Shown here piece by piece: positions 18,623-58,371 of a DNA stretch of 59,539 bases. The notes under the pieces are model-generated. The model searched no databases. It was not told the origin of the DNA and was given only the letters and a program-made list of their open reading frames with translations. Location: IMG/VR virus record IMGVR_UViG_3300042431_000893, positions 1 through 59,539 of that record; one strand, written 5' to 3'. Every line of letters starts with the position of its first letter. The first letter of the stretch is position 1. This stretch comes from a virus (taxonomy: Duplodnaviria > Caudoviricetes). Both the position numbers and the translations under genes were made by a program.

Positions 18623-19948
18623 ATGGAAAGCTATTTTAGTTTTTCTGAACCACTTAATTCTGGTATAGATTTTTATAGAGCAGATGATTATGTCATCATT
18701 GATGCATCCATAGATATCACTAGCAATGTAAGTGCCATTTTTATTAAAACAGCTTTTGCTCAAATTAGCATTTCTGGCGCTCTTGATACAACACTTAATG
18801 CAGTCTTTGAAAGACAAGATGCGTTGTCAAATATTAATATTTCTTCTGATGTTGTTGTCTCAATAACAAAATTTGCACGCTCTGCAAGTAATATTGCCGG
18901 CTCTACGGTTGTGTCCACAGATATAGAGAAGATAGCCCTAGCTTCATCTGTTCAAAGTGGTGATGTTGTAGCGTCATTTGATTCAGAAAAAATTGCGTTT
19001 AGCGTTTCTGCGATAAACGATAGCTCAGTTAATGTAACAACAAGTATTGTCAAAACAGCACAAGCCGTTGTGAATATTTCTGGATTGCTAGATGTTGAAT
19101 TATTAGCTGTCTTTGAAAGACAAGATGGAACTGTAGCTATTTCTAGTAATGTTAGCGTTACTGTTGAAATGCAAAAAATTGCATTTGGTGAACTTGATGA
19201 AACCGCTGGAGCTGCAGCATCAGATATCACTATTAATGTTACAAAAATTGCTATCTCTAACTCCACTGTTAGTGGCGATGTGACTCTAGCTAATACATCA
19301 ATTATAAAACAAGCTCGTGCAGTGTCTGCTTTGTCGGTTCAATCTAATGCTGTAAGTACAATTGGCAAGATTTCATTCCTGAACGCAGCGCTATCTGGAA
19401 CAGTAAACCTTACAACTGCTGGAAGAATATTCTTAGCTACAATTAGAATTAATGTTCTAAACAACACTAATATTGTAGTTAAGCCAATTAGATTTAGCGC
19501 CAATGTTGTTTCCGATAACACTATTATAAGAAATCTATTATTACTTGATAATAAGTCATTGACTAATCAAACAAGAACTTTTGCTATTAACGCAACACCT
19601 AAATTTATTGAAAATGAAAACTGGCAGGGCAATGTATCCCGATACTACAAAAATACATCTGCATCAAAAGGTGCAAAAAGAACATTTAATCTTGATTGGT
19701 CTTTTATCCCCAACGAAGCAAGTTTTACAGTTGATTTAAGAGAATCTAGAAATTTCTTAAAACAAATTGCCCAGGATTCAGATGTGCATAGTTTGACAAT
19801 CATCAATCAAGATGTTAATGGCGTTACTCCATATACAGAAGATGATATTGATGTTTTTATAACAAGTTATAGTGAAACTTTAATTAGAAGAGATTTATCA
19901 AGCGAATCATACTATTTTTCGTGTAATATGGTATTAGAGGAAGCTTAA
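18623..19948 (+). CDS. Minor tail protein: repeat region plus Dit-like C-terminal domain
   Basis: AVFERQD twice and recurring KIA units; C-terminus paralogous to 18206-18622 (SYSETLIRRDL). Confidence 0.6.
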   Translation: MESYFSFSEPLNSGIDFYRADDYVIIDASIDITSNVSAIFIKTAFAQISISGALDTTLNAVFERQDALSNINISSDVVVSITKFARSASNIAGSTVVSTDIEKIALASSVQSGDVVASFDSEKIAFSVSAINDSSVNVTTSIVKTAQAVVNISGLLDVELLAVFERQDGTVAISSNVSVTVEMQKIAFGELDETAGAAASDITINVTKIAISNSTVSGDVTLANTSIIKQARAVSALSVQSNAVSTIGKISFLNAALSGTVNLTTAGRIFLATIRINVLNNTNIVVKPIRFSANVVSDNTIIRNLLLLDNKSLTNQTRTFAINATPKFIENENWQGNVSRYYKNTSASKGAKRTFNLDWSFIPNEASFTVDLRESRNFLKQIAQDSDVHSLTIINQDVNGVTPYTEDDIDVFITSYSETLIRRDLSSESYYFSCNMVLEEA

Positions 19949-22900
19949 TGTTAACAACAGGATATTACGGTAATACTATTTCATCTGACTTTAACAATTC
20001 TATTGTTGCAAAGGGTCAGAAAGTTAAACCAAAAATTATTGTAAATTGGCTTGACAGTAGACACTTAAGTAATTTAGTAGTAACTACTAACGATGATTAT
20101 TCTAACACATCTTACCCCAATCGCGGGTTTTATTTTAGTAAGTCAGAAGCTTTTAATGGCATAGAGAGACAGTCTTTTACATGGGGTGTAGCTGGGGCTA
20201 AGGATGAGGATGGCGATGTTATAAGAGCAGATGGTAGCTATTATGCTATGCCTTCTTTAACAACCAGCGATCTATCAAATACTCATATCGGAAGCTCTTT
20301 GGAGTTCGGGTGGTGGTCAAACACTGCAAGCACAGCCAATACTTCCAATACATACTCTGGTTATACATTCACTACAGCCCCTTATGTTCAAGCGGTTTTT
20401 GATGAAAGAAAAGTTAACAAAGTTAGAATCATTACTTCGGAGTTGTATGGCCAGATATCTGATTATACCCTAGAGGCTTACAATGCCAATACCCTTGTCC
20501 TTTCAGAAACTGGCCGGATTGCAAATGGCTCGTATTATCAAGACCATTTTATCTCGACTGCTTTATCTACACAGAATATAACTAAAATTAAAGTTACTGT
20601 GCATAGCACAAAAAACCCAACTGATTACGCAAGGATTCAAGAAATTGTTCCTCTGTACCAGCTTGATATGAGCGACTATGTGCAAGATTACTCAATCGCT
20701 AGAGCAAGAGATGTTCATTCCACCAGTATGCCTATTGGCGGATCGGAAATTGCATCTGCTGATATTAGTTTTGATAACACAGGTAAGAAGTTTAATGTAT
20801 TTGATTCCACTTCTGATTTTGGCAAATATATACAAAAAGATTTAAAAGTAGAAATATATACAGGTTGGAGAATTAAAAAACCAACTACTGATTATATCAA
20901 TAGCCAATATCTTGAAACTTTCTTAAAAGCCAATATGAACACAACTACAACTACAGCTACAGTGAATGATGTTAGCGTGTTTTCTTCTGGCGGTGCTGGG
21001 AATTATTTTGTTGTTGTTATTGATGAAAATACTCAAAATGAAGAGTATGTATTGTGCTCCGGCACATCTGGTAGTTCCACGCTTAATATTGTTTCTAGAG
21101 GATATGGCGGGTCTGTTGCCAAATCGCATTCCATAAATGCAGTTGTTAAATTTGATATTTATGAATATGTTAAAAATGGAACTTTCTATGTTGATGAGTG
21201 GAATTCAAAATCTGGGGATATGTCTGTGTCAGCTAGTTTACAAGATTGGTCAAAATATCTTGCTGAAAGAACTGTCAGCTATGGTTTCTTTATTCAAAAT
21301 ATTACTGTTGGAGAAGCAGTTGAAAATTTATTGATGAGGGCTAACTTCCCTAAGAAAGATATTAAAAAACTTAGTCCATACAGAAAGGGGGCAATATCTC
21401 GTAACGCCATTGCAATGTATTCTTTTAATGAAGATACAGTTGATCGTAGCGGTAATGATATTGTGTCATCTTCTGGGTTACGAGCAAGATTCTGGGGAAT
21501 GCCAGAAAATCAAAGAGATATCTCTGTAAAAGATATCAAAGCGGATGCAATTGATAAAGAGCTTACTGAGTTAGATAAAGCTCTTGGCGAACTAGCTTTT
21601 GTATCTCCATCTTATATTGCTTTATCAAAAGATATTTCATCCAACTCAGCATACGCAGTTCAACTAGATGATTACTCTTTTACCGGTTTGAATTCAACTG
21701 TGTATACCGATTATTACAATGGAGTTTTTGATGGATTTTATATTCCAAAAGATAATGGTTCTCAAACAATTGTTGTGTATGTAAGAAGTGGTGGTGTAAG
21801 GGTTTTCTTGGATGACCATTTAATTTTAAATCAGTGGAAAACCAGTGCTTCTTTTACTCGCTATGAATCAAGCACACTTAATCTTATTGCTGGTGTTCCT
21901 AGAAAAATTCGTATTGAATTCTTCCATAACTGGAACAATACAGCCGGAACTCCAAGTTTTAAAATATATTTGTATAAATCAGTAAATGGAGCGGCGGATG
22001 TTTTAGTCCCTGCATCTGAATGCTGCACTATTGCGGCTATTGACTCTATTGGTTCAAGAAATCCTTCAGGGGTTATTACTGATAATGATGCGGTAAACCA
22101 TAGAAGTTCTGGTGTGTATATTGCTTCTCCAAAACTAAGTCAAGCGACAGGTCTTGTTTCAGACCCTAACAATAAAGCGGTTTTGCTTGAATCAAATGCA
22201 TATATCAGAACAGCTTTGCATACATCAATTAATTTAACAAACTCATCATCTCCGTTGTATACGGGTAAATGGTCAATTGAATTTTTTGCTAAGTTTAATA
22301 ATGGAGTTTTTTCTAGCAATGGAGAATACATTAGTAATTGGGCTAATGCATCTCCAACAACAGGATTTGAATTTTTTAACAATTCATCTTCAAATGGATT
22401 TAAGATAAGAACGCTTTCTAATTCTGTCGTAACTACAGAAACGGTATCATCAAACACAGCTTTATCAACAAGTGATTTTTCTCATATCATTACAACTTTT
22501 GATGGTACAACAATGTACTATTATGTAAATGGAGTATTAAAAGCAAACACTACTCTTGTCGGTACTCCTATTTCTTGGGCTAATACAAATATTACTATTG
22601 GAGGAAGAGGGGCTTCTTATACTGCTGGGACTGGGGAAGTCGCCCCCTCCACTATTAGAAGTTTTATTATTGATGAATTTGCTATCTATAATCAGTATCT
22701 TCCACTAATTGATGTTCAGGAAAGATACTCTGAGGCTTCAATACAGCCATTGACTACTTTTGGATATCTTTACGGCAATGATAATTCTATTCAAGAAATT
22801 ATAAATGACATTACATTTGCGGATTTAGGTAGAACATATGTTGATGAAGAGGGTAAGGCAAGATACGAACACTTCTACAGATTCTTTGAATCCTCAATTC

Positions 22901-23883
22901 CTCAACATGCAAATATTCAAGCAAATATTTCAGACAGTAGCCATATTATTTCAGCAGATTATGCTGTCCAATTACAATGCAACAAGGTTACAATTGCAAT
23001 CTCTTCATTGCAAAAAAATGCCTCTAAGGTGCAACCTCTTTGGCATGCTGAAGCAAATTCAAGCTTAATTTCAACAACGCTAACAGCAAATTTAACCTCA
23101 ACAGCAAATGTCGTGTTTGTTACATCAACAATTAGTCCTGATTTTTTGAAGTCTGGGTATATCAAAATTCAAGATGAGATTATTGAATACACTTCAAAAA
23201 CAAAAACTTCTTTTACTGGATTAAAGAGAGGTCAATTTCAAACTACAGCAGCGGCTCATATTATTAATGACGGTAATAATTCTAAAGTCAGAGAAGCTAG
23301 ATATTATAATATCAAATACGATAATTCTCCGGCTTTTAATATCAGAAAGCCTTTTATAACATCAATAGACATAGATGATCCACCACAAGCTGAAATTGTA
23401 AGATTCCTTCATCATGCTTATGGGGCTGAATTGATATTAGCTACTGCAAACACAGTGCCAGCAGGCGAAGTTGTTGTTCTTGAGGGTGAAAATCCTAAAA
23501 CTAAATATCAAAACTCAACATCCCTTGCCGGTGTTGTTGTTGAGATATCAGAAAAAAATGGTCAAATTAAAGAACAATCTTCTGTAAATAGTGAAAGCAT
23601 AAAAAAATATGGGTTAAAAGATATTGATATTTCTAGCCCATTTATTAATGACACTGTTCATGCTCAAAGATTAGCAGAATTAATTATTTCAAAAACACAA
23701 ATACCTGTTCCTATTTTAAATATAAACACTATAGCAATGCCAAAGGTTCAATTGGGTGATAGAATTAGAATATCCAATGTGACAGCTTTAGGTATATCTA
23801 ATACTGATTATTGGGTAATTTCGCATCAATTGAGTGTAGGCAGTACTGTAACTCAAACTATGGTGCTAAGGCAGGTCAGTTAA
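19948..23883 (+). CDS. Tail tip/baseplate hub protein with PA14-like and LamG/ConA-like domains
   Basis: GGVRVFLDDHLILNQW...KIRIEF (PA14-like); WSIEFF...HIITTFDGTTMYYYVNG...IDEFAIYN (LamG); ESIKKYG and QLGDRI hub motifs. Confidence 0.8.
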   Translation: MLTTGYYGNTISSDFNNSIVAKGQKVKPKIIVNWLDSRHLSNLVVTTNDDYSNTSYPNRGFYFSKSEAFNGIERQSFTWGVAGAKDEDGDVIRADGSYYAMPSLTTSDLSNTHIGSSLEFGWWSNTASTANTSNTYSGYTFTTAPYVQAVFDERKVNKVRIITSELYGQISDYTLEAYNANTLVLSETGRIANGSYYQDHFISTALSTQNITKIKVTVHSTKNPTDYARIQEIVPLYQLDMSDYVQDYSIARARDVHSTSMPIGGSEIASADISFDNTGKKFNVFDSTSDFGKYIQKDLKVEIYTGWRIKKPTTDYINSQYLETFLKANMNTTTTTATVNDVSVFSSGGAGNYFVVVIDENTQNEEYVLCSGTSGSSTLNIVSRGYGGSVAKSHSINAVVKFDIYEYVKNGTFYVDEWNSKSGDMSVSASLQDWSKYLAERTVSYGFFIQNITVGEAVENLLMRANFPKKDIKKLSPYRKGAISRNAIAMYSFNEDTVDRSGNDIVSSSGLRARFWGMPENQRDISVKDIKADAIDKELTELDKALGELAFVSPSYIALSKDISSNSAYAVQLDDYSFTGLNSTVYTDYYNGVFDGFYIPKDNGSQTIVVYVRSGGVRVFLDDHLILNQWKTSASFTRYESSTLNLIAGVPRKIRIEFFHNWNNTAGTPSFKIYLYKSVNGAADVLVPASECCTIAAIDSIGSRNPSGVITDNDAVNHRSSGVYIASPKLSQATGLVSDPNNKAVLLESNAYIRTALHTSINLTNSSSPLYTGKWSIEFFAKFNNGVFSSNGEYISNWANASPTTGFEFFNNSSSNGFKIRTLSNSVVTTETVSSNTALSTSDFSHIITTFDGTTMYYYVNGVLKANTTLVGTPISWANTNITIGGRGASYTAGTGEVAPSTIRSFIIDEFAIYNQYLPLIDVQERYSEASIQPLTTFGYLYGNDNSIQEIINDITFADLGRTYVDEEGKARYEHFYRFFESSIPQHANIQANISDSSHIISADYAVQLQCNKVTIAISSLQKNASKVQPLWHAEANSSLISTTLTANLTSTANVVFVTSTISPDFLKSGYIKIQDEIIEYTSKTKTSFTGLKRGQFQTTAAAHIINDGNNSKVREARYYNIKYDNSPAFNIRKPFITSIDIDDPPQAEIVRFLHHAYGAELILATANTVPAGEVVVLEGENPKTKYQNSTSLAGVVVEISEKNGQIKEQSSVNSESIKKYGLKDIDISSPFINDTVHAQRLAELIISKTQIPVPILNINTIAMPKVQLGDRIRISNVTALGISNTDYWVISHQLSVGSTVTQTMVLRQVS

Positions 23884-25139
23884 TGATAAATGAAAGCGGG
23901 GTGTCTTTTTATCCAGGTGGTGGTCATAACCATGACGGTGAGAACTCTACTTTAATTAATACATCTGTTTATTCTGTATACGACTTTCCTGTTCAAATTA
24001 TAGGAGATCCAAGTAGAACAGCTGACCAAATACGAAATTTAGACAGCTTTAAACAATTAATCATTGACACTGTAAATCAATCTATTATTGCTCCGTCAGG
24101 AATTGTATTTCAACAAGGAATGATTAATGGTTCAGCGCATATTATATCAAGATCAATTGAAGCTCAATCTATTGTGGCAGGTACACTTACAGCAAATGAA
24201 ATTGCAGCTGGAACAATTACTGCTAATTTATTAGCGGCAAACATTGTTTTAGTCAATAATGTAATTAGTAGTAATAACTATGTCCCTGGTGTTTCTGGTT
24301 GGGTTATTAATAGTGATGGAAGTGCTGAATTTGATTTTGCTGTAATTAGAGGCACGGTTGTAGCTGATTCTATATATATCAATGCTCTTAATTATTGGAA
24401 TTCTAATGGAACATTTTCTGTTGGCTCTGCTAATAATGTCATGTTTTATAACGGCACAAATCTGGAATTAACCGGAACAGTGACTGCAACAGCCGGTCAA
24501 ATTGCTGGATGGCAAATTGTTGGCGACAATCTTGAGACTGGTGGTAATTTTTCTGGCTCAATGCAATTAGGTGAGTTTACGCAAACAAACGGAGCAGCCG
24601 GTGTTTTTATTGAGGGTGCAGCCTTTGGAAGTCTTTATGGTGAAACAATATTAGTTGGCGGGGGATTAGATTTATCCTTGAAAGATCAATCAAATACAAT
24701 TACGACTTCTTATACTTATGCTGGGTCGGCATACAGGTACGGACCTGAGTATTTTGAATTTTATTACGATGCAAATGACGATCAGCTTTACGCATATATA
24801 GATGGATATCAGTATTGCATACAGAAATGTGGCGCAAGCCCTACCCCAACACCTACTCCGACTCCAACAGCTCCCACTCCAACTCCGGTAGCTCCGACTC
24901 CGGTAGCTCCGACTCCGGTAGCTCCGACTCCGGTAGCTCCGACTCCAACAGCTCCAACTCCAGTTCCTTACGGTGGCCCTGGACCTGGGCCAACGCCAGT
25001 ATCAGAGCCAACACCTGTTGCACCAACTCCAGTTCCGGTAGCCCCAACACCGGTAGCCCCAACACCGGTATTTGTACCAGGCTGCTCTCCCCCATGTCCA
25101 CAAGACTTTATTTGCGTAGATGGATTCTGCATTGGTTAA
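23883..25139 (+). CDS. Tail fibre/receptor-binding protein with Pro/Thr-repeat, Cys-rich C-terminus
   Basis: Start moved to ATG 23883 (TAATG overlap); AGTLTANEIAAGTITA, SNNYVPGVSGWVINSDGSAEF and GQIAGW fibre motifs. Confidence 0.75.
   Translation: MINESGVSFYPGGGHNHDGENSTLINTSVYSVYDFPVQIIGDPSRTADQIRNLDSFKQLIIDTVNQSIIAPSGIVFQQGMINGSAHIISRSIEAQSIVAGTLTANEIAAGTITANLLAANIVLVNNVISSNNYVPGVSGWVINSDGSAEFDFAVIRGTVVADSIYINALNYWNSNGTFSVGSANNVMFYNGTNLELTGTVTATAGQIAGWQIVGDNLETGGNFSGSMQLGEFTQTNGAAGVFIEGAAFGSLYGETILVGGGLDLSLKDQSNTITTSYTYAGSAYRYGPEYFEFYYDANDDQLYAYIDGYQYCIQKCGASPTPTPTPTPTAPTPTPVAPTPVAPTPVAPTPVAPTPTAPTPVPYGGPGPGPTPVSEPTPVAPTPVPVAPTPVAPTPVFVPGCSPPCPQDFICVDGFCIG
24882..24946 (+). repeat. Perfect 15-bp tandem repeat ACTCCGGTAGCTCCG x4 (TPVAP)
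   Basis: Read directly; lies inside a degenerate Pro/Thr tract at about 24840-25070. Confidence 0.9.
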
Positions 25140-25164
25140 TGGTATACTTTAATAAAGGAGAAAT

Positions 25165-25365
25165 ATGGCTACTAGAAGATTTGTTTTAATTGCAGAAGGT
25201 GATGTGTTTATGCAAGTTCAATTTGATGATGAAATTTCTTCGCCCAGCGCTGCTGCGTGGGCTGCTGGTTTAGCGAGCAATCCTACGGTGATTGAAGTAA
25301 CGGATCAACCAAATGTTGTCCCTGGCTGGGCTTGGAATGGGGATTCTTTTACACCACCACAATGA
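25165..25365 (+). CDS. Small hypothetical, possible fibre-assembly protein
   Basis: AAGGAG RBS, TGGTATACT upstream; C-terminal GWAWNGDSFTPP motif. Confidence 0.6.
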   Translation: MATRRFVLIAEGDVFMQVQFDDEISSPSAAAWAAGLASNPTVIEVTDQPNVVPGWAWNGDSFTPPQ

Positions 25366-26399
25366 ATTCTCCTTGGAGAGAACATAATATAAATTTAAAT
25401 TCTCACAATGCATTTCGTTTATGGAATGGTGGATTATTTAATCAATTAATAACTTTAGAAATAGCGATTGGTATATCATATTTTCTCAAAACTCCAATAT
25501 ATATACATGACATGAGAAAGCTACCGAGCCTGTCAGAATCTTTTGAAAATAAAATTAATTACATTACAGATTTTATAGATACATCGTCTTTTGATAACAT
25601 ATTTTTTTCAAAAAAAATTATTGAACATCCATCAAGTAAGCAATACCATATAAAAAACTTAATGAACGCTTTTATCCCGGTTTCTGACGGAGATGAGAAA
25701 ATACAAGAATTTGCTGAAGGTCGAGATAAACTGATAATTGATAAAGATAAATTTTATTATTTTAATAATAATTTATCATATTATTCTATTATGTTTTATA
25801 ACAGAACAAGTTCTTTTGATGAATATTTAAAAAAGTTAAAATTTAAACAAGAATATATTGATTTGGCAAATACAATTTCATCTTCAATAGGTGAATTTTC
25901 TGGTATACATTTAAGACAGACCGATTTTGCACAAACAATTTATTCAGTTACAGAACAAGAATATAATGATGCAATTAATTTTTTAAAAATAAACAACAGT
26001 TTAATTATTACATGCACTGATAATCTTAAATCATCAATTGCTATTGATGATGGTCGTGTTTTATATATAGACAATTTAATTAAAGATAATTTTTTAAATG
26101 AATTTAAACAACTATCAATAACAAGTAAAATATCTTTTGATTTAATTTGTATGCTAGTAATGTGTAATGCAAAAGATTTTATTGGAACAATAGGTAGCAC
26201 TTATTCTGGTTTAATACATAGAGCAATAAATCAAAAAAATAATAATATTCATCATTGGAAAAACATGGGTGATAGTAGTTCAGTGAATAGTTTGCCATTT
26301 TCTTGGAATTCTTATGATACAATATCAATAGGTAAAAAATTATGGTGGCGAGAATGGAAGGAAAGTTATATGGGAGGCTGTGATGTCAGCTTGGTCTGA
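25362..26399 (+). CDS. O-fucosyltransferase-like glycosyltransferase
   Basis: GGLFNQ, GIHLRQTDF, CTD and DFIGTIGSTYS motifs of the GDP-fucose transferase superfamily; ATGA overlap start. Confidence 0.75.
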   Translation: MNSPWREHNINLNSHNAFRLWNGGLFNQLITLEIAIGISYFLKTPIYIHDMRKLPSLSESFENKINYITDFIDTSSFDNIFFSKKIIEHPSSKQYHIKNLMNAFIPVSDGDEKIQEFAEGRDKLIIDKDKFYYFNNNLSYYSIMFYNRTSSFDEYLKKLKFKQEYIDLANTISSSIGEFSGIHLRQTDFAQTIYSVTEQEYNDAINFLKINNSLIITCTDNLKSSIAIDDGRVLYIDNLIKDNFLNEFKQLSITSKISFDLICMLVMCNAKDFIGTIGSTYSGLIHRAINQKNNNIHHWKNMGDSSSVNSLPFSWNSYDTISIGKKLWWREWKESYMGGCDVSLV

Positions 26400-26610
26400 A
26401 TATAAAAAGAAAATAGGAGAATCAAGACCTTGGCATTTGCTGGATTCAAGTACACAAAAAGCTAGCGCAGAAGAAGCCAATAGAAGATACGATATTTGTT
26501 TATCTTGTGATAGGTTAATTAAATTAACAAAACAATGTAAAGAATGTGGTTGTATTATGCTAGCTAAAACTAAATTACAAAATGCAACATGTCCACTTAA
26601 TAAATGGTAA
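26383..26610 (+). CDS. Small Cys-rich protein (DUF6171-like)
   Basis: RYDICLSC...QCKECGC...KTKL..ATCPLNKW. Confidence 0.7.
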   Translation: MSAWSEYKKKIGESRPWHLLDSSTQKASAEEANRRYDICLSCDRLIKLTKQCKECGCIMLAKTKLQNATCPLNKW

Positions 26611-27158
26611 ATATGGTTTTACAAGACCCTTTTGTAATTTCAAATATATTTGATAATATTTACTTTAATGCACTACAAAAATATGCAATGGACCTTTGGG
26701 CTAATGATGATGGGTCAGCTTTTTCTGAGGGGTTTGGAAGATATCAATGGGCTAATACTGAAATTTTAAATGAAGGTTCAGAGTTGCTTTTGCCTATGGC
26801 TAAAGAAAAATTTAAAAGTAATACACTAAAACCATCATGGAATTTACTAGTTACTTATCAAACAGAAAAAGCAAAATTATGGAAACATAAAGACGATAAT
26901 GCTTGTACATACACTATTGATTATTGTTTATTTCAAAAAACACCATGGGATCTATGGGTTGAAAATAAACCATATTCTTTAAATGAAAACCAAGCCCTTT
27001 TTATGTATGGATGCGATCAGGAGCATTGGAGGGAAGATTTCCCATCGCCAGAAAATAACTTGACTTCATATGTGTTTTATTTCTTTTGTGAACCAGACCA
27101 TTGGTATTTTACAAAAGGTCCATCTTATTTGGATAGAGTTATTAGAGCAAAGAAATAA
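26604..27158 (+). CDS. 2OG-Fe(II) oxygenase superfamily protein
   Basis: Y.....L.KHKD (HxD) and distal H in GCDQEHWRE. Confidence 0.75.
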   Translation: MVNMVLQDPFVISNIFDNIYFNALQKYAMDLWANDDGSAFSEGFGRYQWANTEILNEGSELLLPMAKEKFKSNTLKPSWNLLVTYQTEKAKLWKHKDDNACTYTIDYCLFQKTPWDLWVENKPYSLNENQALFMYGCDQEHWREDFPSPENNLTSYVFYFFCEPDHWYFTKGPSYLDRVIRAKK

Positions 27159-27175: not shown

Positions 27176-27859
27176 ATGGCATATGAGAACTACTCCCAGG
27201 TCTCCTGGACAGACGGAACCCCGATCACTGGTGACAGATTGCAACAGATGTCAACCAATACTCAGCAAGTAAAAGAAGCTACTGATGATGCCCCACAAGG
27301 CGTAAAGAAAATTAAATCAGTTGCTTCTGCGAGTAGTGCTTTCTCAAACTTTGCAACTTATAATGAAATTATCTCTCTTAAAGACGATACCGGTACTGGC
27401 GGTACTGATAACAGAGTAAGCCTTGGGGCTTCTCGTTATTACCGAGTAACTTTAAATTTTACTGGCTTTGTTGTTGAAGCCAAAGGTGCTGAAGATGCGA
27501 CATATTCAGTAGCCGTTTATAACGGGTTGTTTGCATCCATCGGAGCGGCATCACAAATTTTGACTGCTGATTTCACTCCTCCAATTTTTGCTTTTATTAA
27601 CACAGCATCTCTTGGCGGGTCTGCGACTATTGCCAACATTGCATTAAGAAATGATGCATATGATAGTAAATTCGGTGCTTCTACATTATCAATTGTTCTA
27701 TCAACATCTTCTTCTGGCTTAACTAACCAATCTTTTTTTGCAGCAGTTAAGAGAGAACAAGGCGCTAGCTCAGCTAATGCGCCTAACTACTATGTTCCTG
27801 CTAGCTCCAGCGTAAAGCTTTTACAACTATATGTTGAAGATATTGGAGGCATTGCTTAA
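27176..27859 (+). CDS. Putative minor virion protein
   Basis: Y.QVSWTDGTPITGDRLQQM N-terminus, ends LYVEDIG; TATAAT 6 nt before ATG. Confidence 0.6.
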   Translation: MAYENYSQVSWTDGTPITGDRLQQMSTNTQQVKEATDDAPQGVKKIKSVASASSAFSNFATYNEIISLKDDTGTGGTDNRVSLGASRYYRVTLNFTGFVVEAKGAEDATYSVAVYNGLFASIGAASQILTADFTPPIFAFINTASLGGSATIANIALRNDAYDSKFGASTLSIVLSTSSSGLTNQSFFAAVKREQGASSANAPNYYVPASSSVKLLQLYVEDIGGIA

Positions 27860-27869: not shown

Positions 27870-28283
27870 ATGGCTCTTGCTTCTCAAAGAAAAGATATAA
27901 GTTGGTCATCCAAAGCTGCTTCTGGAGAAGATAGTCCAAATTTTACTGGCGGTAAGTATATTGACGATAAAGGCTATGTGAGAGTCTTACGCCCAGAACA
28001 CCCAAAAAACATTCGGGGCTATGCTTATGAGCATAGGCTGGTTGTTGAAAAATACCTTGGTAGATTTCTTCAGGCATGGGAGACTGTACACCATATAAAC
28101 GAAGTAAAGCAAGATAATAGGCTGGATAATTTATTTTTGTGTTCTCATAAAGAACATAGCGCTTTGCATAAAGAAGGAACTGTAATGTCAATGGAACATC
28201 GTGAAAAAATGAGACAAACAGCTTATAATAATAAGCCTCATACTAAGAAAAAGAATTACGCAAAAAATATTAATTTTAGATAA
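27870..28283 (+). CDS. HNH endonuclease
   Basis: YEHRLVVEKYLGR...VHHINEVKQDNRLDNL. Confidence 0.9.
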   Translation: MALASQRKDISWSSKAASGEDSPNFTGGKYIDDKGYVRVLRPEHPKNIRGYAYEHRLVVEKYLGRFLQAWETVHHINEVKQDNRLDNLFLCSHKEHSALHKEGTVMSMEHREKMRQTAYNNKPHTKKKNYAKNINFR

Positions 28284-28343: not shown

Positions 28344-29414
28344 ATGAAACAATGCGAAGGTACTGATTGTACTTATAAGTTTGAGCCAAAAACAGCAAAT
28401 CAAAGATATGCCGATAACAGTTGTCGCAAGACGCTAGACAAAGATGGTATATGCAGAGTGAGAAGAGAAAGCCGTGGTCCTCAATGGCCTGTGGTTAAGC
28501 AAGGTCCTGCTATTAGATTGCCAAAACCAAGAACTGTTGCAAAGAAAACTGCAAAATATAAAAAATGCGTAGTTGTCCCAGATGCTCAAATTGGTTATTA
28601 CAGAGGTCGTGATGGAAAGCTAGAGCCGACTCATGATGAAAAAGCAATTGAGATTATGCTTGCAATCGTTCGTGATGTAAAGCCGGATTCGGTAGTTTGC
28701 GTTGGTGATAACTTGGATTTTCCAACTTTAGGAAAATACATAACAACACCTGCGTATCAACAGACTATGCAGGCTTCAATTGATCGGGCAACAACATTCT
28801 GTGCTCAACTAAGAGAGGCTGCCCCATCAGCAAAAATAGTTTGGCTTGCTGGTAATCACGAAGAGCGAATGCCGAAATATTTGTTAGTGAATGCTGTTGC
28901 AGCATATGGAATTCGCAAAGGAAATACCCCCGATTCTTGGCCGGTATTAACTGTTCCATACCTTGCTCGCATGGATGATTTTGGCGTGGAGTACAGACCA
29001 GGTTATCCGGCTTCTGATTTTTGGATTAATGAAAAATTAAGAATTATTCACGGAGATAGAGTTAAATCTTCAGGCTCAACAGCTCATATTTATTTAAATA
29101 GCGAAAAGACTAGTGTGATCTACGGACACATTCATCGTATTGAAACCGCATTTAAAACTCGTGAGGACTTTGATGGCTCTCGCACAACTATGGCAGCGTC
29201 TCCTGGGTGCTTGGCAAGAATTGATGGCGCAGTGCCTTCAGTTAAAGGCGGTGTTGACCTTGATGGTAGACCGCTTGTTAGATACGAGAATTGGCAACAA
29301 GGTGTTGGTATCGTTACATACGAAACAACAGGACAGCATAAATTCTTTTATGAGGTTACGCCAATATATAACGGATGGGCAATCTACAAAGACAAGGAGT
29401 ATTTTGCAAAATGA
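28344..29414 (+). CDS. Calcineurin-like metallophosphoesterase
   Basis: VPDAQ, GDNLD, GNHE, HGD and GHIHR motifs. Confidence 0.85.
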   Translation: MKQCEGTDCTYKFEPKTANQRYADNSCRKTLDKDGICRVRRESRGPQWPVVKQGPAIRLPKPRTVAKKTAKYKKCVVVPDAQIGYYRGRDGKLEPTHDEKAIEIMLAIVRDVKPDSVVCVGDNLDFPTLGKYITTPAYQQTMQASIDRATTFCAQLREAAPSAKIVWLAGNHEERMPKYLLVNAVAAYGIRKGNTPDSWPVLTVPYLARMDDFGVEYRPGYPASDFWINEKLRIIHGDRVKSSGSTAHIYLNSEKTSVIYGHIHRIETAFKTREDFDGSRTTMAASPGCLARIDGAVPSVKGGVDLDGRPLVRYENWQQGVGIVTYETTGQHKFFYEVTPIYNGWAIYKDKEYFAK

Positions 29415-30043: not shown

Positions 30044-30256
30044 ATGGCAGACAAAACAAAACCGGAAACAGAAATTTGGGCATCAATTGGTATTACCAAG
30101 AATTTAGGTAACTACGAATCATTGAGACTTGACGCTGGTGCTCGCACCTCATGCACCTCGCTAGAGAGCGAAGAGGCTTGGAAAAGCTTGTGGGATGTTG
30201 TTGATTCACAAATTGAAGCAAAACTTCAAGAACTAGATGCAGAGAAAACCAAATAA
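30044..30256 (+). CDS. Phage hypothetical protein
   Basis: AGGAG RBS; GITKNLGNYESLRLDAG motif. Confidence 0.65.
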   Translation: MADKTKPETEIWASIGITKNLGNYESLRLDAGARTSCTSLESEEAWKSLWDVVDSQIEAKLQELDAEKTK

Positions 30257-30539
30257 CTGGCGGCTTGAAGCCGTATGTTTAAGTGATAAAAACTCTGGGT
30301 ATTGGCTGTCATATAAGCACTCTGAAGTGTTATACGCTAAAGAGGGTTGTGCGAGATGCACAGTCAAAACCCCGTGTTTTTTATCGGCAATACAAAATGA
30401 TGAATTTGTCGGTGTTAATGCCGGTATTTCAGAATATGATTTTTTAATGTCAACATGGAAAAAGGCAACTAAAAACAATGGAACAACAAGAGATAGATCC
30501 GATAAGTCAATTAAAAAATTGCTGCAAAAAATATCATAA
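30237..30539 (+). CDS. whiB: WhiB-family Fe-S transcription regulator
   Basis: WRLEAVC...AKEGCARCTVKTPC...GVNAG. Confidence 0.8.
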   Translation: MQRKPNNWRLEAVCLSDKNSGYWLSYKHSEVLYAKEGCARCTVKTPCFLSAIQNDEFVGVNAGISEYDFLMSTWKKATKNNGTTRDRSDKSIKKLLQKIS

Positions 30540-37694: not shown

Positions 37695-38756
37695 ATGCTT
37701 GTATGGTCTGATAATCAAATCCCAAAATTTAGTGAAGGTTACGGCTATACACCAGATTGCCTATGGGAATATATCGGCTCAAGCGGTTTACCAATTAGAC
37801 GAAATAAACCATCTATGCCAGAAGAAATTGGCAGATTGCAAGCAAATGTTCCAGGAATTGGCTATTTTCAAAGAGGGCATTTTGCGGATGAAATTGTTAT
37901 CAACCATTCAGTGCCGGATATGTTTGTTAAATCCAAGTTATACACAATTGGTTATACTTTTTGGGAAACAAATAAGCTACCAAATGACTGGGTTGAGAGA
38001 TGTAATGAGATGGATGAGGTTTGGACAACTACTCATGCCATGAGGGATGTCTTTATAAATTCCGGTATTACTAAACCAGTTTATGAATTTAAATTGGGGG
38101 TTGACCCTAAAATATATTTTCCAAAAAAGAGAACTCCGCACGATCAATTCACCTTTCTTTCTGTTGGCTCACCAGCAACTCGTAAGAACTCGCAGTTATC
38201 CGTAGATGCGTTTTTAAAAGTGTTTGAAGGTAATCATAATTATAGACTTATTTATAAATCCAATGGTCCTCCAGATGCCAGGATTTGGACAAGCGGCATG
38301 ATTGGTCCAGTTCAACATCCGCAAATTCAAGTGATTGATGATGAAGTATCTCACGAAGAATTGGGTGCAATTTATGATAAAGCAGATTGTTTGTTATTTC
38401 CTACTAGTGGTGAGGGTTGGGGAAATATTCCGTTCCAAGGGATTGCAAAAGGAATCCCTACAATTTGCACAAATGTTTTAGCATGTTCTGATTTTGCTCA
38501 TATGTCTGTACCTCTTGATTTCACATGGGGGACTAAAAATATGACCGGAAGATACGCTAATGCTGGACAGTGGGGTGAGCCAGACTTTGATGATCTATGT
38601 GATAAGATGCTGTATGTAGCAAATAATTACGAAGAAGTTTCTAATAAAACATATCAGAGTGCTGAATTTATTAATCAGAACATGACTTGGGAGAAAGTTT
38701 CTCAAAAATATATTGCTAGATGCTGGGAAGTTCTAAAGGAAACGGGAAGTCTATGA
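37695..38756 (+). CDS. GT4-like glycosyltransferase
   Basis: YTFWET, RKN, FPTSGEGWGNIPFQGIAKGIPTIC. Confidence 0.85.
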   Translation: MLVWSDNQIPKFSEGYGYTPDCLWEYIGSSGLPIRRNKPSMPEEIGRLQANVPGIGYFQRGHFADEIVINHSVPDMFVKSKLYTIGYTFWETNKLPNDWVERCNEMDEVWTTTHAMRDVFINSGITKPVYEFKLGVDPKIYFPKKRTPHDQFTFLSVGSPATRKNSQLSVDAFLKVFEGNHNYRLIYKSNGPPDARIWTSGMIGPVQHPQIQVIDDEVSHEELGAIYDKADCLLFPTSGEGWGNIPFQGIAKGIPTICTNVLACSDFAHMSVPLDFTWGTKNMTGRYANAGQWGEPDFDDLCDKMLYVANNYEEVSNKTYQSAEFINQNMTWEKVSQKYIARCWEVLKETGSL

Positions 38757-39748
38757 AAATACATTATATAAGTTGTCATTCAATTCTTGAGTATGACGAA
38801 GTGCAGCTTTTAACAGATTTAGGGCATGATGTATTTTCTAACGGAGCATACATAGATCCAAGAGGGCATATTACTTTACCAAGACCTCCAATCTCTGGGG
38901 CTATCTATCACGAAGATTATGCGAAGTTGTCCATTGATTCTCCTAAAACAAATCTCCCTCCAGAGTTAATTGAACCATTTGATGTGATAATCGTTATGCA
39001 TTCTCCAGATGTGATTATTCAAAACTGGGATAAGATAAAACACAAGACAGTTATCTGGAGAACCATTGGACAATCAACAAATGGTGTTGAAGCATCGCTA
39101 GAGCCAATGCGCAAAGAGGGATTGAAAATTATTAGATATTCTCCAAAAGAAAGAAATCTTTCTAACTATATTGGCGAAGATGCTTTGATTAGATTTTATA
39201 AAGATGAGGATGCGTATAGTGGATGGGTTGGTTCTGGTGGGGTTGTAACTTTTGCGCAAAGCCTCAAGGGTCGCAGAACACATTGTCATTACGAAGAAGT
39301 TACTCGTGTAATAACAAAATATAACGGTCTTGTGTATGGTCCCGGCAATGATGATCTAGGTGAATTAAATGGCGGGTCCATTTCTTATTCTAGTCAAATC
39401 CAAAAAATGCAGGAAGCTAGGGTTATGATTTATGGAGGCACAGCCCCAGCCTCATACACATTATCTTTCATTGAAGCATTGATGATGGGTTTACCAATTG
39501 TTGCAATAAGCAAAGAGTTGGCTCATATTATTTATGATTTTGACTTTTATGAAGTTGATGAGATATTGGCTCAAATCGGTGGTTTAGTTTGTGATAATGT
39601 AGACCAAATGTTTCATAAAACAGAAATGATGTTAAATGATATTGATTTTGCAAAAGAAATGAGCAAAAAACAAAGAGCTCTGGCAATTGAAATGTTTGGC
39701 AAAAAGAAAATAATTAAACAATGGGAGGAATTTTTAAATGGAAATTAA
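38753..39748 (+). CDS. GT-B (GT4-like) glycosyltransferase
   Basis: SFIEALMMGLPIV...A.EMFG...I..QW; ATGA overlap start. Confidence 0.75.
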   Translation: MKIHYISCHSILEYDEVQLLTDLGHDVFSNGAYIDPRGHITLPRPPISGAIYHEDYAKLSIDSPKTNLPPELIEPFDVIIVMHSPDVIIQNWDKIKHKTVIWRTIGQSTNGVEASLEPMRKEGLKIIRYSPKERNLSNYIGEDALIRFYKDEDAYSGWVGSGGVVTFAQSLKGRRTHCHYEEVTRVITKYNGLVYGPGNDDLGELNGGSISYSSQIQKMQEARVMIYGGTAPASYTLSFIEALMMGLPIVAISKELAHIIYDFDFYEVDEILAQIGGLVCDNVDQMFHKTEMMLNDIDFAKEMSKKQRALAIEMFGKKKIIKQWEEFLNGN

Positions 39749-40412
39749 AACAATAACTGAGCAGCTTCGTGATCTTGATGGTCAGCTAGTAATACATAAT
39801 GAAGGTGAATGGGGCGGTGGTGATGCAAATTCTAGCGAATACAGTGCTTTTAATGATGCCGGAGTAGAGTGTGAGGTTGGTGAGTTTCTCTATAGCTTTA
39901 TGCGGTTGATTAAACCAAATTTTGTTCTTGAAACAGGGACTCATCAAGGTGTAAGTTCATCGTACATTGGATTTGCGTTAAAAAATAATGGGTTTGGTGT
40001 TTTAGATACTCATGAATTCGCTAAAGAAACATATGACATTGCTAACGCTAGATTTAGTAGATTAGGTTTAACAGAACAAATTTTCTCGCATCTCGGTGAT
40101 GTTGGTGATTTAATTTTAACTAAGCATTATGATTTTATATTTCTAGATACTGAACCTCAAACCAGATTTGCAGAGATGGTTAAGTTCTACCCGAATTTAA
40201 AGGATGGCGGGTATTTATTTATTCACGATCTTCATAGAAATATGCATCAAATTCCTAATGAAGAACATGGCTTTGCTTGGCCTTATGGGAAAATCCCTAA
40301 GGAAATGACTAATTTAGTTTTAAATAAAAAACTTGTTCCATTTCATTTTGAAACTCCAAGAGGTTTGACAATGTTTTATAAGCCTAGGGTTGATGACTAC
40401 GAGTGGACATGA
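39738..40412 (+). CDS. Class I SAM-dependent (O-)methyltransferase
   Basis: VLETGTHQGVSS, DFIFLD, LKDGGYLFIHD. Confidence 0.85.
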   Translation: MEIKTITEQLRDLDGQLVIHNEGEWGGGDANSSEYSAFNDAGVECEVGEFLYSFMRLIKPNFVLETGTHQGVSSSYIGFALKNNGFGVLDTHEFAKETYDIANARFSRLGLTEQIFSHLGDVGDLILTKHYDFIFLDTEPQTRFAEMVKFYPNLKDGGYLFIHDLHRNMHQIPNEEHGFAWPYGKIPKEMTNLVLNKKLVPFHFETPRGLTMFYKPRVDDYEWT

Positions 40413-40413
40413 T

Positions 40414-41436
40414 ATGTCTAGAGCTGCTCTGCTACCCACCCCAGGGGACCCGTTTCTTTTAACTCTTTGGAGTTATTTTTTTAAAAATGTTTGGGGAAAA
40501 GAAATTGATAAATTATATATTTGTATAAATAATATTTTTTTACCTGAATCTACTGAATACATAAAATCTTTATTTAAAGATTGCAGTAATGTAGAAATTG
40601 AATTTATAGATTTAATATCTCATCCTAATGTAGTCGGTGATCATGGAAAAATAATTGCACATATGCTTAACCAAGTTGAAGAAGATTATATACTTCTTAT
40701 TGAGGATGATGGGTTTATTTTTAAACCAGGATATGTTAATGATTATTTTTTAAAACTTGAAAATTATGAATATGATTTAATAGGAAGTAGACGAGGATCT
40801 TGTTCTGATGTTATTATAGAACAATCAAAAATTAAATATAATATAGTTGAGCAAAATGGACACGACAATGGCCCTAATTTTTGGCCATGTTTTTTCTTTA
40901 TAAGAAAAAATATATTTGAATTAACAGACAAAAATTTTTCTGCTAAACTATGGGATAAAAACAGTATTCTTCCTATATTTGAGAAAACTCTTGATACTGA
41001 TTGCGCTGGCGATACTATGGTCTGGATGAGTATGCAATTAAGAAATCTTAATTTAAAAATTGGTGATTGCCCTCAATTTCACGGAAATTTAAGCGATGTG
41101 CTGGATTACGAACTTGGGCTGAACAATTTTAACGGGACTTCATATTGGCTACACGCAGGCAGTCTATCAAGCGGAATTGGTGGGTTTTTAAGCGATAAAG
41201 ATCTAATTAATTATTGTAATACAGATGAAGAAAAAATGGAAATTGAGAGAAGAATTTGTTTTTGGTCTTTAGGTTTAGATTCATATTTTAAAGAATCATC
41301 AAGCCAAAATAAAATTGATAAAATTGCATTTCAATACCAAAGTTGGCTACAAAGATTAGTTAAGCATTATCAATTATCAGACAGTAGAATTGATTATTCT
41401 AAAAAAATGTATGCGGAGCTACTTGAATGGACGTAA
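40414..41436 (+). CDS. GT-A-like glycosyltransferase
   Basis: DHG...YILLIEDDGFI (DxD-like); operon context. Confidence 0.55.
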   Translation: MSRAALLPTPGDPFLLTLWSYFFKNVWGKEIDKLYICINNIFLPESTEYIKSLFKDCSNVEIEFIDLISHPNVVGDHGKIIAHMLNQVEEDYILLIEDDGFIFKPGYVNDYFLKLENYEYDLIGSRRGSCSDVIIEQSKIKYNIVEQNGHDNGPNFWPCFFFIRKNIFELTDKNFSAKLWDKNSILPIFEKTLDTDCAGDTMVWMSMQLRNLNLKIGDCPQFHGNLSDVLDYELGLNNFNGTSYWLHAGSLSSGIGGFLSDKDLINYCNTDEEKMEIERRICFWSLGLDSYFKESSSQNKIDKIAFQYQSWLQRLVKHYQLSDSRIDYSKKMYAELLEWT

Positions 41437-42164
41437 TCATTTCATGGCCTGATTCTGTTGATTACCCAAATTGGCGGTCATTCATTAAAAAAAATAGACA
41501 AAGGTTTAACAATGTATTTGTTGCTTTTACAGTAACCAACTCTGGGACAGATTATACTAATTTTATATCTTCATCAATGAGTGATGACAATATAACATTC
41601 TTATATCCACCACACAATTCGCCATTGACTAGTAGCCATTTTGAAGACTGGAGAAATAGATCGGTCAATCAAGCGCTTGATTTAAGCAAATCAGAGTGGG
41701 TGTGGTTTACTGAGCAAGATTTTATTATAAAAGACGATGATGAATTCTGGTTAAATATTTATTCTTTAATGAAAGAATTTGATGCAATCGGTTATCGTGA
41801 AGGTCAAGGTAGTGGATTAGACATGTCAAGGTATCACCCCGCTTGTCTTTTTGTCAAAAGACAAATTATTGACAAAACTAATAGGTATTTCGGAATAGTT
41901 CCTGATGTCTCAGACCATTTTGCTGTTTTTTCTCAACAAATTAATTTGCAAAATTGTAAAGTATCATTGCTTGATAAAAATAATTTTACTCATATGAATG
42001 GCCTCTCTCATAATTTTAATTTAATGCAACGCGGCGAAAAGATTGTATATTACCCATTGGATTTTCAATTATATTTAAAAGATTGTCTTTTGCTAAATGA
42101 TGTAGAAATAAATGATGATTACAAAAAGATAATTATTGAGCGATATCCGGATTTAATGCAATGA
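41427..42164 (+). CDS. GT-A-like glycosyltransferase
   Basis: NQAL...SEWVWFTEQDFII...HPACLFVKR. Confidence 0.55.
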   Translation: MDVIISWPDSVDYPNWRSFIKKNRQRFNNVFVAFTVTNSGTDYTNFISSSMSDDNITFLYPPHNSPLTSSHFEDWRNRSVNQALDLSKSEWVWFTEQDFIIKDDDEFWLNIYSLMKEFDAIGYREGQGSGLDMSRYHPACLFVKRQIIDKTNRYFGIVPDVSDHFAVFSQQINLQNCKVSLLDKNNFTHMNGLSHNFNLMQRGEKIVYYPLDFQLYLKDCLLLNDVEINDDYKKIIIERYPDLMQ

Positions 42165-58082: not shown

Positions 58083-58371
58083 TAGCAGCACAGATGATAG
58101 TTGGAGAAAAAATGCTTTATGTAAAAAATATAAAGACATTGATTTCTTTTCCGAAGATATTCTTAGTATAAGAAAATCATTAAATATCTGTAAGCAATGT
58201 GTAGTTGCTGTTGAGTGTTTAAAACATTCAATTGAGCAAAAAGAATCATACGGTATTTGGGGTTGTTCAACTCAAAGAGAAAGAAGAAAGATTATCAAAA
58301 ACAAAATTAACTTAAGTGATAGAGAACTAAAACAGATTGTGTTAAAAAATGGAAACAATGTATTGTCTTAA
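58072..58371 (+). CDS. whiB: Second WhiB-family regulator
   Basis: WRKNALC...FF...ICKQCVVAVEC...YGIWGCSTQRER. Confidence 0.85.
   Translation: MMSDSSTDDSWRKNALCKKYKDIDFFSEDILSIRKSLNICKQCVVAVECLKHSIEQKESYGIWGCSTQRERRKIIKNKINLSDRELKQIVLKNGNNVLS

Follow-up and report, generated by a model that had tools for sequence, protein, structure and literature searches.

A Pro/Thr-repeat fibre tip and its linked oxygenase and glycosyltransferase genes in an uncultured phage: a candidate cassette for fibre modification

We analysed the end of a tail-fibre gene and the four genes behind it in an uncultured-virus record of 59.5 kb (IMGVR_UViG_3300042431_000893, positions 1-59,539; this whole stretch is referred to below as the window). 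The fibre ends in a Pro/Thr-rich repeat linker that bears a small Cys knot, and it is followed by genes encoding a small protein (small66), a glycosyltransferase (GT) that resembles protein O-fucosyltransferases (POFUT), a Cys-rich protein of the DUF6171 type and a protein with the fold of 2-oxoglutarate (2OG)-Fe(II) oxygenases. In relatives, the whole cassette-plus-tail unit alternates with a fibre end that is formed by a Peptidase_S74 domain. The cassette is very probably tied functionally to the fibre end, and on the basis of the sequence comparisons and structure models we favour, on balance, the reading that it serves to hydroxylate and/or O-glycosylate the linker or knob of the fibre in the cytoplasm. 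The observation itself holds and is not a chance arrangement; as judged from the sequences, its interpretation is plausible and well supported by linkage. The fibre end and the cassette consist of the following features:

23883-25139, + strand: tail fibre of 418 residues, the presumed substrate (Pfam Phage_Tail_Tip at 3.3e-4, which is below the cutoff; PHROG tail-fibre families)
24816-24830, + strand: CIQKC, residues 312-316 of the fibre, the N-terminal border of the linker (C312 and C316 invariant in the window and the related loci L003 and L006)
24840-25079, + strand: Pro/Thr/Val/Ala linker, approximately residues 320-399, with PTPT, PTPVA and a central YGGPGPGP element
25083-25130, + strand: C-terminal four-Cys knot CSPPCPQDFICVDGFC, residues 401-416, followed by IG and the stop codon (C401, C405, C411 and C416 invariant in the window, L003 and L006)
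25165-25365, + strand: small66, 66 residues, a recurrent family between the fibre and the DUF6171 gene
25362-26399, + strand: GT-B enzyme of the fucosyltransferase superfamily (POFUT-like), 345 residues, by profile and fold matches
26380-26610, + strand: DUF6171-type protein, 76 residues, with six invariant Cys (PF19668, PHROG 13558)
26604-27158, + strand: 2OG-Fe(II) oxygenase-fold protein, 184 residues, of a phage-only family without a Pfam model, by fold and the HxD...H motif

The last 107 residues of the fibre are made up of CIQKC, a repeat linker of about 80 residues and CSPPCPQDFICVDGFC-IG, and in this respect a first-pass annotation of the same DNA, in which the fibre was described as ending in Pro/Thr repeats between Cys motifs, was correct. 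At the DNA level the repeats appear as TRF units of 15 and 30 nucleotides (nt) at 24856-24962 and 25035-25070, and the linker DNA has a GC content of 58% because of its codon make-up. The fibre is the sole real Pro-rich open reading frame (ORF) of the 59.5-kb window. Its first ~310 residues show a weak likeness to tail-tip fibre J regions, and its N-terminal part is common to the loci L003, L006, L213 and L214. The C-x3-C-G border was also found in L214, L217 and L228, and Cys-rich ends like CSPPCPQDFICVDGFC are present in most of the cassette-linked fibres.

The genes for the fibre, small66, the GT, the DUF6171 protein and the oxygenase lie on one strand in this order. A gap of 25 nt with a Shine-Dalgarno-like AAGGAG separates the fibre from small66, and the subsequent genes overlap by 4 nt (ATGA; small66/GT), 17-20 nt (GT/DUF6171 gene) and 7 nt (DUF6171 gene/oxygenase), in agreement with the four overlapping genes described earlier. 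The candidate promoter that had been placed in front of these genes was not recovered: the 25-nt gap contains no promoter-like match, and the cassette region has 20 such matches against 22.1 +/- 4.5 in shuffled sequences, i.e. no excess. No second copies of the cassette genes were found within the window.

Evidence that the tail and the cassette go together came from a gene that follows the cassette:

27176-27859, + strand: g227, conserved gene 3' of the cassette, of which homologues (65-82% identical) lie after a cassette or directly after an S74-ended fibre

When used as an anchor, g227 selects on neither the cassette nor the tail type, and it yielded 23 loci, which reduce to approximately 5 positive and 11 negative distinct sequences. 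The cassette is present in five of the 23, all five with a Pro/Thr-type linker and a Cys-rich fibre end, and such a tail was seen in none of the 18 loci that have no cassette genes. The 18 cassette-free fibres have at most 4 Pro per 20 residues and only 0-1 Cys in the last 150 residues, and the representatives that were tested (7/7) end in Peptidase_S74, with g227 located 4-210 bp further. L213, which was found via the fibre N-terminus (60% identity over residues 1-202), likewise has an S74 end, with g227 19 bp further. Each of the five anchored cassettes contains small66, DUF6171 and an enzyme: a (PGPEPG)-type linker goes with a GT of the PF11397 family in L217, a poly-Thr linker with a PF11397 GT in L218, an (EPPTVVVG)n linker with a PF13640 oxygenase in L219 (on the same contig as L214), a short Pro-rich linker with a PF13640 oxygenase in L228, and an (SPAV)n linker with a PF13640 oxygenase and a GNAT protein in L234. 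The gene for this GNAT acetyltransferase (L234:4691-5158) lies between the small66 and DUF6171 genes. One genomic position is found in three states: an S74 end and no cassette; a linker and knot with a cassette of the prolyl 4-hydroxylase (P4H) type; and a linker and knot with the oxygenase and the POFUT-like GT, the latter in the window, L003 and L006. This alternation was absent from the first-pass annotation, as were the presence of DUF6171 and small66 in all five anchored cassettes irrespective of the enzyme and the Cys-rich modules that accompany the linker.

The same linkage was observed in a survey of IMG/VR for relatives of the oxygenase, in which 122 were found and 80 loci were kept. 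A DUF6171 gene lies upstream of the oxygenase in 80/80 loci and is adjacent to it in 77 (in L038, L065 and L073 there is another gene or a gap in between), and in 72/80 the DUF6171 gene is preceded, at a distance of 30-1256 bp, by the end of a Pro-rich ORF on the same strand. Six of the eight loci without a Pro-rich ORF call have at most 630 bp of upstream sequence available; in L046 a cut Pro-rich end failed the filter, and in L038 the PT ORF is on the opposite strand. Counted without redundancy, the Pro-rich ORF is present in 27 of the 28 testable clusters at 90% identity. The question raised earlier, whether Pro-rich tails co-occur with the enzymes in related genomes, is thereby answered strongly in the positive, both in the anchored loci (5/5 vs 0/18) and in the oxygenase loci. 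Sorting of the 62 unique Pro-rich proteins by their non-repeat parts gave 23 groups; the repeats are thus retained in proteins that otherwise differ. The cassette-linked proteins have PT, PTPVA or PV linkers together with small Cys-rich modules, and their ends are Cys knots or PFFPPFF-type repeats.

Some further features of these proteins and their surroundings were recorded. Many of the Pro-rich proteins encoded upstream of DUF6171 have aromatic-proline repeats of the PFFPPFF or PPxFF types at or near the C-terminus, as in L017, L024, L031, L035, L044, L061, L062 and L064. The PT protein L075:3224-5257 runs beyond its linker into a non-repeat domain of approximately 160 residues, which, as judged by eye, may be Hint-like. 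Many relatives encode collagen-like G-x-y repeat proteins some kilobases ahead of the cassette (e.g. L017:404-1126; about 15 loci have shadow ORFs of this kind on the minus strand); such repeats were considered as an alternative substrate and rejected, since no collagen-like repeat protein is encoded in the window.

Throughout the window and the 80 loci (81 cassettes) DUF6171 is constant and the accessory enzymes vary. Four accessory types were searched, namely two GT types, an epimerase and a P4H-type oxygenase. The POFUT-like GT is combined with a GDP-sugar-type epimerase/dehydratase in 33/81 cassettes (33 of the 43 with a FucT-like GT), and eight of these 33 also have a PF13640 oxygenase and two a PF11397 GT. 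The POFUT-like GT occurs alone in 10/81 (the window's clade and three loci with short flanks), the PF11397 GT alone in 15/81, and an epimerase only in 2/81. The window has a minimal version of the cassette, with no epimerase and with the GT ahead of the DUF6171-oxygenase pair. In L127, a radical SAM/SPASM enzyme (L127:2795-3727, minus strand) is encoded with a PF13640 oxygenase, led by DUF6171, on one side and a PF11397 GT on the other, and it may carry out a further tailoring of Cys-rich modules.

The type of enzyme was found to co-vary with the composition of the linker. Cassettes with a FucT-like GT go with Val/Ala/Ile-rich repeats (median 0.31 of the linker residues, n=31) and those with a PF11397 GT with plain (PT)n (median 0.09, n=13), with L003/L005 and L059 as exceptions. 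At least three changes of GT class can be placed on the tree of the oxygenase; of 3 independent pairs, an average of 2.4 show the repeat type changing along with the GT class and none show the reverse, three pairs being too few for significance. We take PF11397 to be the Gnt1 family; this link is based on the Pfam family, because the PF11397-type GT of L044 had no sequence match in the PDB.

By sequence, the Cys-rich protein of the window is a member of DUF6171. On its own it scores 22.8 bits against PF19668, which is below the cutoff of 27, but homologues that are 45-60% identical to it pass (27.9-33.3 bits), and it matches PHROG 13558 at 2.7e-16. C40, C43, C53, C56, C58 and C71 are invariant in 53 DUF6171 sequences, and the protein probably binds metal. 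From its genomic associations we read DUF6171 as an accessory domain of tailoring enzymes. We found one in-frame fusion with the oxygenase (P0078) and one with a PF11397 GT (L139:930-2129), and the DUF6171 gene also precedes PF13640 oxygenases in L042, L118, L127, L130 and L214; a profile of the PF13640 oxygenases from L042, L118, L127 and L130 matches the P4H of Bacillus anthracis at 1e-9 and PHD2 at 1e-4 to 1e-5. In the cultured cyanophage Sf-FS3 the DUF6171 gene overlaps the start of an oxygenase gene annotated as P4H, beside sugar-nucleotide genes, and in S-CBS2, which has also been cultured, it is found inside the fibre module. The Sf-FS3 locus (L208; Synechococcus phage Sf-FS3, a cyanomyovirus, 183681-187657) continues with a second Fe2OG dioxygenase, an NAD-dependent dehydratase, a methyltransferase and an epimerase. 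A complex prediction for DUF6171 and the oxygenase, both supplied as alignments, scored 0.01, which speaks neither for nor against binding. DUF6171 was named in no paper in a full-text literature search, subscription journals being outside the scope of that search.

The oxygenase has, according to its model, the fold of the 2OG-Fe(II) oxygenase superfamily. The model (predicted local distance difference test score, pLDDT, of 90) shows the double-stranded beta-helix of these enzymes, and H95, D97 and H141 (in or beside the strands predicted at 92-96 and 140-143) do not vary among 55 sequences, which confirms the HxD...H oxygenase that had been recognized from the single sequence. R46 and R143 are also invariant, and K94 and K96 nearly so, which makes them candidates for binding of the 2OG C5-carboxylate. 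A comparison of the oxygenase profile with PDB sequences gave nothing relevant. Among the fold matches, those with prolyl hydroxylases are tied with SnoN, with amino-acid hydroxylases/halogenases and with AlkB-like enzymes, and PhyA of the Skp1 pathway is one of the top matches. In a large protein collection the oxygenase has 307 relatives, all metagenomic, and a Pfam oxygenase domain is found in none of the best 120 of these 307. The cultured-phage collection gave three weak matches only, labelled ferrochelatase, a label that we take to be an annotation error because it sits on proteins with the 2OG-oxygenase fold. Two paralogues of the oxygenase family (L056:6001-6567 and 7535-8095) flank a PF11397 GT, and the second of these is 45% identical to the protein of the window.

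By profile and predicted fold, the GT can be placed in the fucosyltransferase superfamily. The single sequence matches PF10250 below the cutoff (E 0.0036; 17.4 bits against a cutoff of 31.5; residues 159-201 only), and a profile of 25 GT sequences finds POFUT2 in the PDB at E 8.6e-5 over 160 residues. All top 50 Foldseek matches of the model (pLDDT 73.5) are fucosyltransferases (POFUT2, POFUT1, AtFUT1, FUT8 and NodZ), with E-values of 1e-6 to 4e-4 and template modelling (TM) scores of 0.35-0.48. H183, R185 and D188 (H-x-R-x-x-D) are invariant in the 25 sequences and lie inside the stretch that matches PF10250; the Arg of this stretch presumably contacts GDP-fucose. The O-fucosyltransferase-like assignment of the first-pass annotation, weak for the single sequence, is firmer by profile and fold. 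The same annotation had called the GT gene AT-rich, like a swapped module. The gene is indeed AT-rich (25.5% GC), and 46 of 1171 stretches of the same size in this sequence also have a GC content below 27%. A recent swap in this genome was rejected as the explanation, since low GC is a trait of the family: the 11 other homologues examined all lie 6-10 GC points below their own loci. Relatives of the GT (30-36% identical) turned up only inside oxygenase loci; a tblastn search of the cultured-phage collection gave no match, and a single-sequence pattern scan of IMG/VR found none.

The small66 protein has no Pfam or PHROG match. Its family was found at this position in 37/81 cassettes with an iterated hidden Markov model and in 5/5 of the cassette-bearing g227 relatives, and it is possibly a fibre assembly factor.

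Taken together, these data could be explained as follows. The unit would be a swappable fibre-tip module of freshwater actinophages, in which a flexible Pro/Thr(Val/Ala) linker bears a small Cys knot. The four genes would be translated with the fibre late in infection, and their products would mature the fibre end in the cytoplasm of the host, before or during assembly. The fibre is probably the substrate that becomes covalently modified. The oxygenase would hydroxylate residues of the linker or knob, with Pro as the likeliest target because of the Pro-rich context and the P4H-type enzymes that occupy the same slot in relatives; that this particular oxygenase hydroxylates Pro we propose tentatively, with some doubt. 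The POFUT-like GT would take its sugar from a nucleotide sugar made by the host (probably a GDP-sugar) and attach it to Thr or hydroxyproline of the linker or knob, and an O-linkage of the sugar to the linker seems somewhat likely. As to the remaining two proteins, we infer that DUF6171 would serve any enzyme present as a shared accessory subunit or docking domain, and that small66 would help in assembly, possibly in place of the intramolecular S74 chaperone of relatives. The product would be a stiff and protease-resistant glycopeptide stalk, mucin- or extensin-like, that presents the Cys knot.

A more far-reaching variant, which we consider unlikely, would make DUF6171 a dedicated Zn-ribbon recognition subunit that brings exchangeable tailoring enzymes to the linker and knot, much as recognition elements do in the pathways of ribosomally synthesized and post-translationally modified peptides (RiPPs). 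The enzymes recruited would then include two unrelated families of 2OG oxygenases, POFUT-like and Gnt1-like transferases and, in some relatives, GNAT or radical-SAM enzymes, and lake actinophages would possess a modular cytoplasmic "mucin/extensin factory" for their receptor-binding tips as an evolutionary alternative to the S74 chaperone. If this variant is true, the phage-only oxygenase family would constitute a new class of peptidyl hydroxylases.

A number of observations weigh against hydroxylation and glycosylation of the fibre end. The support for it consists of linkage and fold. The oxygenase has no Pfam match at E 0.1 or better and is by sequence outside the P4H family (PF13640), and its comparison by hhalign with the PF13640 oxygenases of other cassettes gave a probability of 0.1. 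It moreover coexists with a P4H-type oxygenase in 8/80 loci, and because of this it may do something other than prolyl 4-hydroxylation. Hydroxylase and GT are not obligate partners, as there are relatives with the oxygenase and no recognised GT and relatives with the reverse; in L217 and L218, for instance, the GT is present and the oxygenase absent. None of the four accessory types was found in 21/81 cassettes (some of these loci are incomplete), and the cultured phages S-IOM18 and Moby (the latter of Stenotrophomonas) have DUF6171 without an annotated neighbouring oxygenase. A sugar-nucleotide gene was not found within the cassette of the window. The oxygenase homologues form one fairly tight family (49-86% identity), and many of the loci are therefore not independent, so that the linkage could be that of an inherited fibre-tip block. 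The converse scan, in which runs of eight Pro-Thr codons were sought, gave at least 126 stretches in viral contigs, of which 80 loci were taken with their flanks; among the 80 PT loci listed, DUF6171 is present in 5 (on 4 contigs) and the oxygenase in one contig. PT linkers are thus common without the cassette, yet the oxygenase survey puts the cassette nearly always behind a PT-type protein.

Among the alternatives, the one that survives best holds that the cassette is linked to the fibre end as one recombination block without the fibre being the substrate. In that case small66 and DUF6171 would be folding or assembly factors of a tip that lacks S74, and the enzymes would act elsewhere, on another virion protein, a host envelope glycan or a receptor. 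An assembly role for some of the genes is suggested by the alternation with the Peptidase_S74 end at the same position, and it is consistent with the five anchored cassettes, which all have small66 and DUF6171 and in which the enzymes swap or are missing; as all loci belong to one family, their linkage may also be inherited. For actinophage GTs, passages of the report on the first isolates of acI phages (PMC10202952) propose a role in DNA protection or cell-wall modification. We nevertheless consider an uninvolved fibre unlikely. Against it stand the co-variation of enzyme type with linker composition and the repeat feature that is kept in 23 groups of otherwise unrelated Pro-rich proteins, and the fusions to the oxygenase and to a GT tie DUF6171 to enzymes and not to folding alone. 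In addition, g227 is found whether or not a cassette is present and is therefore not the specific partner.

If the fibre is the substrate, it could also be modified in another way. The oxygenase would then make no hydroxyproline and act instead on Thr, Val, Asp, Asn, the Cys-rich knot or a sugar, and the POFUT-like GT would glycosylate Ser/Thr of a folded Cys-rich module. Such activities are known: Asp/Asn beta-hydroxylase acts on epidermal growth factor (EGF) domains and POFUT1 and POFUT2 act on EGF domains and thrombospondin type repeats (TSR), i.e. on small disulfide-rich domains. POFUT2 and POFUT1 are the closest solved relatives of the GT, and the flanks of the linkers are rich in Cys: within 60 residues of the linker the median Cys content is 7.1% and 92% of the cassette-linked proteins have at least 4 Cys, as compared with 0.5% and 17% in control PT proteins, the two sets being phylogenetically unmatched. 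The oxygenase, for its part, occurs beside P4H-type enzymes in the 8/80 loci mentioned above and is tied by fold with amino-acid hydroxylases and SnoN. The POFUT consensus sites are, however, of the C-x-x-S/T-C types, which the Cys motifs of the window do not fit, and in the reducing cytoplasm folded disulfide domains are unlikely. Furthermore, it is the linker, and not the kind of knot, that is common to all cassette-linked proteins, some of which end in PFFPPFF-type repeats. We therefore regard such a different chemistry as improbable.

A role in nucleic-acid modification or host metabolism (an AlkB/TET-like oxygenase with a DNA-glycosylating GT, or auxiliary metabolic genes) is very improbable: AlkB and NMAD-1 are among the Foldseek matches of the oxygenase, one homologue was named AlkB by its source, and related PHROG and phage records carry the ferrochelatase label, but that label sits on 2OG-oxygenase-fold proteins, the cassette lies directly behind a Pro-rich fibre-type gene in 72/80 loci and not among genes of DNA metabolism, the GT is of the superfamily of protein/glycan fucosyltransferases, and the DNA methylase and replication genes of the window are 3-17 kb distant. 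No TET or JBP entries are among the oxygenase fold matches listed, and there is no Pfam match of any kind.

The gene order of the window is siphovirus-like, with a tape-measure-type protein of 1950 residues followed by distal tail proteins and then by replication genes. The gene in front of the fibre encodes a large tail protein, and the ATG of the fibre starts on the last base of its stop codon:

19948-23883, + strand: large distal tail protein of 1311 residues (Laminin_G_3, 4.4e-12, and PA14, 1.4e-8, in Pfam; PHROG minor tail protein, 2.3e-17)

The cassette, which had been described as lying inside the tail module, does adjoin tail genes, but it is located at the distal end of the module and is followed by g227 (27176-27859) and then by non-tail genes, in the order HNH endonuclease, metallophosphoesterase, WhiB and replication genes. 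The HNH endonuclease gene (27870-28283; HNH_3, 7.7e-12) is situated between g227 and the metallophosphoesterase gene (28344-29414), and an HNH gene was seen at the same position in L214 and L016.

The host is likely a low-GC actinobacterium of the freshwater type, as suggested by the two WhiB-family genes (30237-30536, Pfam 4.4e-9; 58072-58368, Pfam 1.2e-15), the DnaE-type polymerase encoded in the window and the GC content of the window of 35.6%. In passages on the first isolates of acI phages, whiB was used as an actinophage marker (PMC10202952). The record is approximately 57% complete (CheckV) and its relatives are uncultured-virus contigs; no tRNA genes were found in the window, and the 5-kb cassette region had no blastn match in the cultured-phage collection.

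Elsewhere in the window, a second run of overlapping genes (37695-43207), flanked by recA and the gene for DNA polymerase III alpha, encodes a GT4 glycosyltransferase (PF20706/PF13692; PHROG glycosyltransferase, 2.4e-34), a methyltransferase and four proteins of 245-349 residues with at most faint hints of GT1 or GT2. Its products could form another glycosylation system, which would act on DNA, on the cell wall or in glycan extension. A C-5 cytosine DNA methylase is encoded at 44488-45855 (Pfam 5e-61), and the regions 1665-2311 and 5691-6542 hold genes for a staphylococcal-nuclease homologue, a 4Fe-4S ferredoxin and an endolysin-like protein with VanY and PG_binding_1.

Low-GC freshwater actinobacteria are among the most abundant bacteria of lakes, and to our knowledge almost nothing has been described of how phages recognise them. 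If the fibre end is indeed hydroxylated and/or glycosylated by the products of its cassette, phages could tailor their receptor-binding tips by hydroxylation and O-glycosylation, and tip and enzyme set would be exchanged as one; both the evolution of host range and the persistence of virions in water would thereby gain a further layer. DUF6171 would receive a function, as would the phage-only oxygenase family, which lacks a Pfam model and counts 307 homologues, and soluble enzymes would become available that hydroxylate and glycosylate Pro/Thr linkers in the bacterial cytoplasm.

The literature search described above found no phage fibre with a hydroxylase/GT cassette, in agreement with the first-pass annotation, which knew of no described phage system of this layout. 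By analogy, the PhyA-Gnt1 steps of the Skp1 pathway are the nearest mechanistic precedent and the glycosylation of mycobacteriophage virions is the nearest phage precedent. In mycobacteriophages it is reportedly the capsid and tail-tube subunits that are glycosylated, and not the fibre tip. Glycosylation of mycobacteriophage virions (Freeman et al. 2023, Cell Host Microbe) is cited in passages of PMC12582341. The GT genes of those actinobacteriophages lie beside structural genes and their products glycosylate virion proteins in the cytoplasm; the GT gene of the window likewise lies directly behind the fibre gene, but the mycobacteriophage system is not known to include an oxygenase, DUF6171 or a Pro/Thr and Cys-knot substrate, and the GT of the window is POFUT-like.

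In the Skp1 pathway of Dictyostelium and Toxoplasma, the cytoplasmic 2OG prolyl hydroxylase PhyA modifies a Pro, after which the soluble glycosyltransferases Gnt1, PgtA and AgtA build a glycan on the hydroxyproline (passages of PMC3515798). PhyA is a top fold match of the window oxygenase, and sister cassettes carry PF11397, "Glycosyltransferase (GlcNAc)". The pathway differs in that a single Pro of a regulatory protein is modified and not a repeat linker of a virion, and in that the GT of the window is POFUT-like instead of PF11397 and its oxygenase is outside the P4H sequence family.

Chlorovirus PBCV-1 reportedly encodes a prolyl 4-hydroxylase that acts on viral Pro-rich repeats (Eriksson et al. 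1999, as cited in PMC7019647). According to a note in the reference list of that Chlorovirus review, no hydroxyproline was detected in PBCV-1 particles, which makes this a weak precedent and has to be added to the points that weigh against modification of the fibre. The two systems are alike in that a virus-encoded 2OG oxygenase is thought to hydroxylate the virus's own Pro-rich repeat proteins; PBCV-1 differs in being a giant virus of eukaryotes with a canonical P4H, for which no linked GT or DUF6171 is known.

POFUT1 and POFUT2 (PDB 4ap5, 4ap6, 5foe and 5ky5) are the best profile and fold matches of the GT and share the H-x-R-x-x-D motif with it, and their small Cys-rich substrates resemble the Cys-rich modules that accompany the phage linkers. 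The identity is, however, 9-12%, with TM-scores of 0.41-0.48 and a Pfam O-FucT score below the cutoff, and POFUT1 and POFUT2 are enzymes of the endoplasmic reticulum, whereas the phage GT would be soluble and cytoplasmic. Finally, the Peptidase_S74 ends occupy the same slot, i.e. the fibre C-terminus before g227, in 18/23 anchored relatives and in L213, and because of this shared slot S74 may be seen as another functional way to complete the tip of the fibre. It is a folding domain that cleaves itself and is part of the fibre, whereas the linker and knot described here would be served by separate genes, including those for enzymes.

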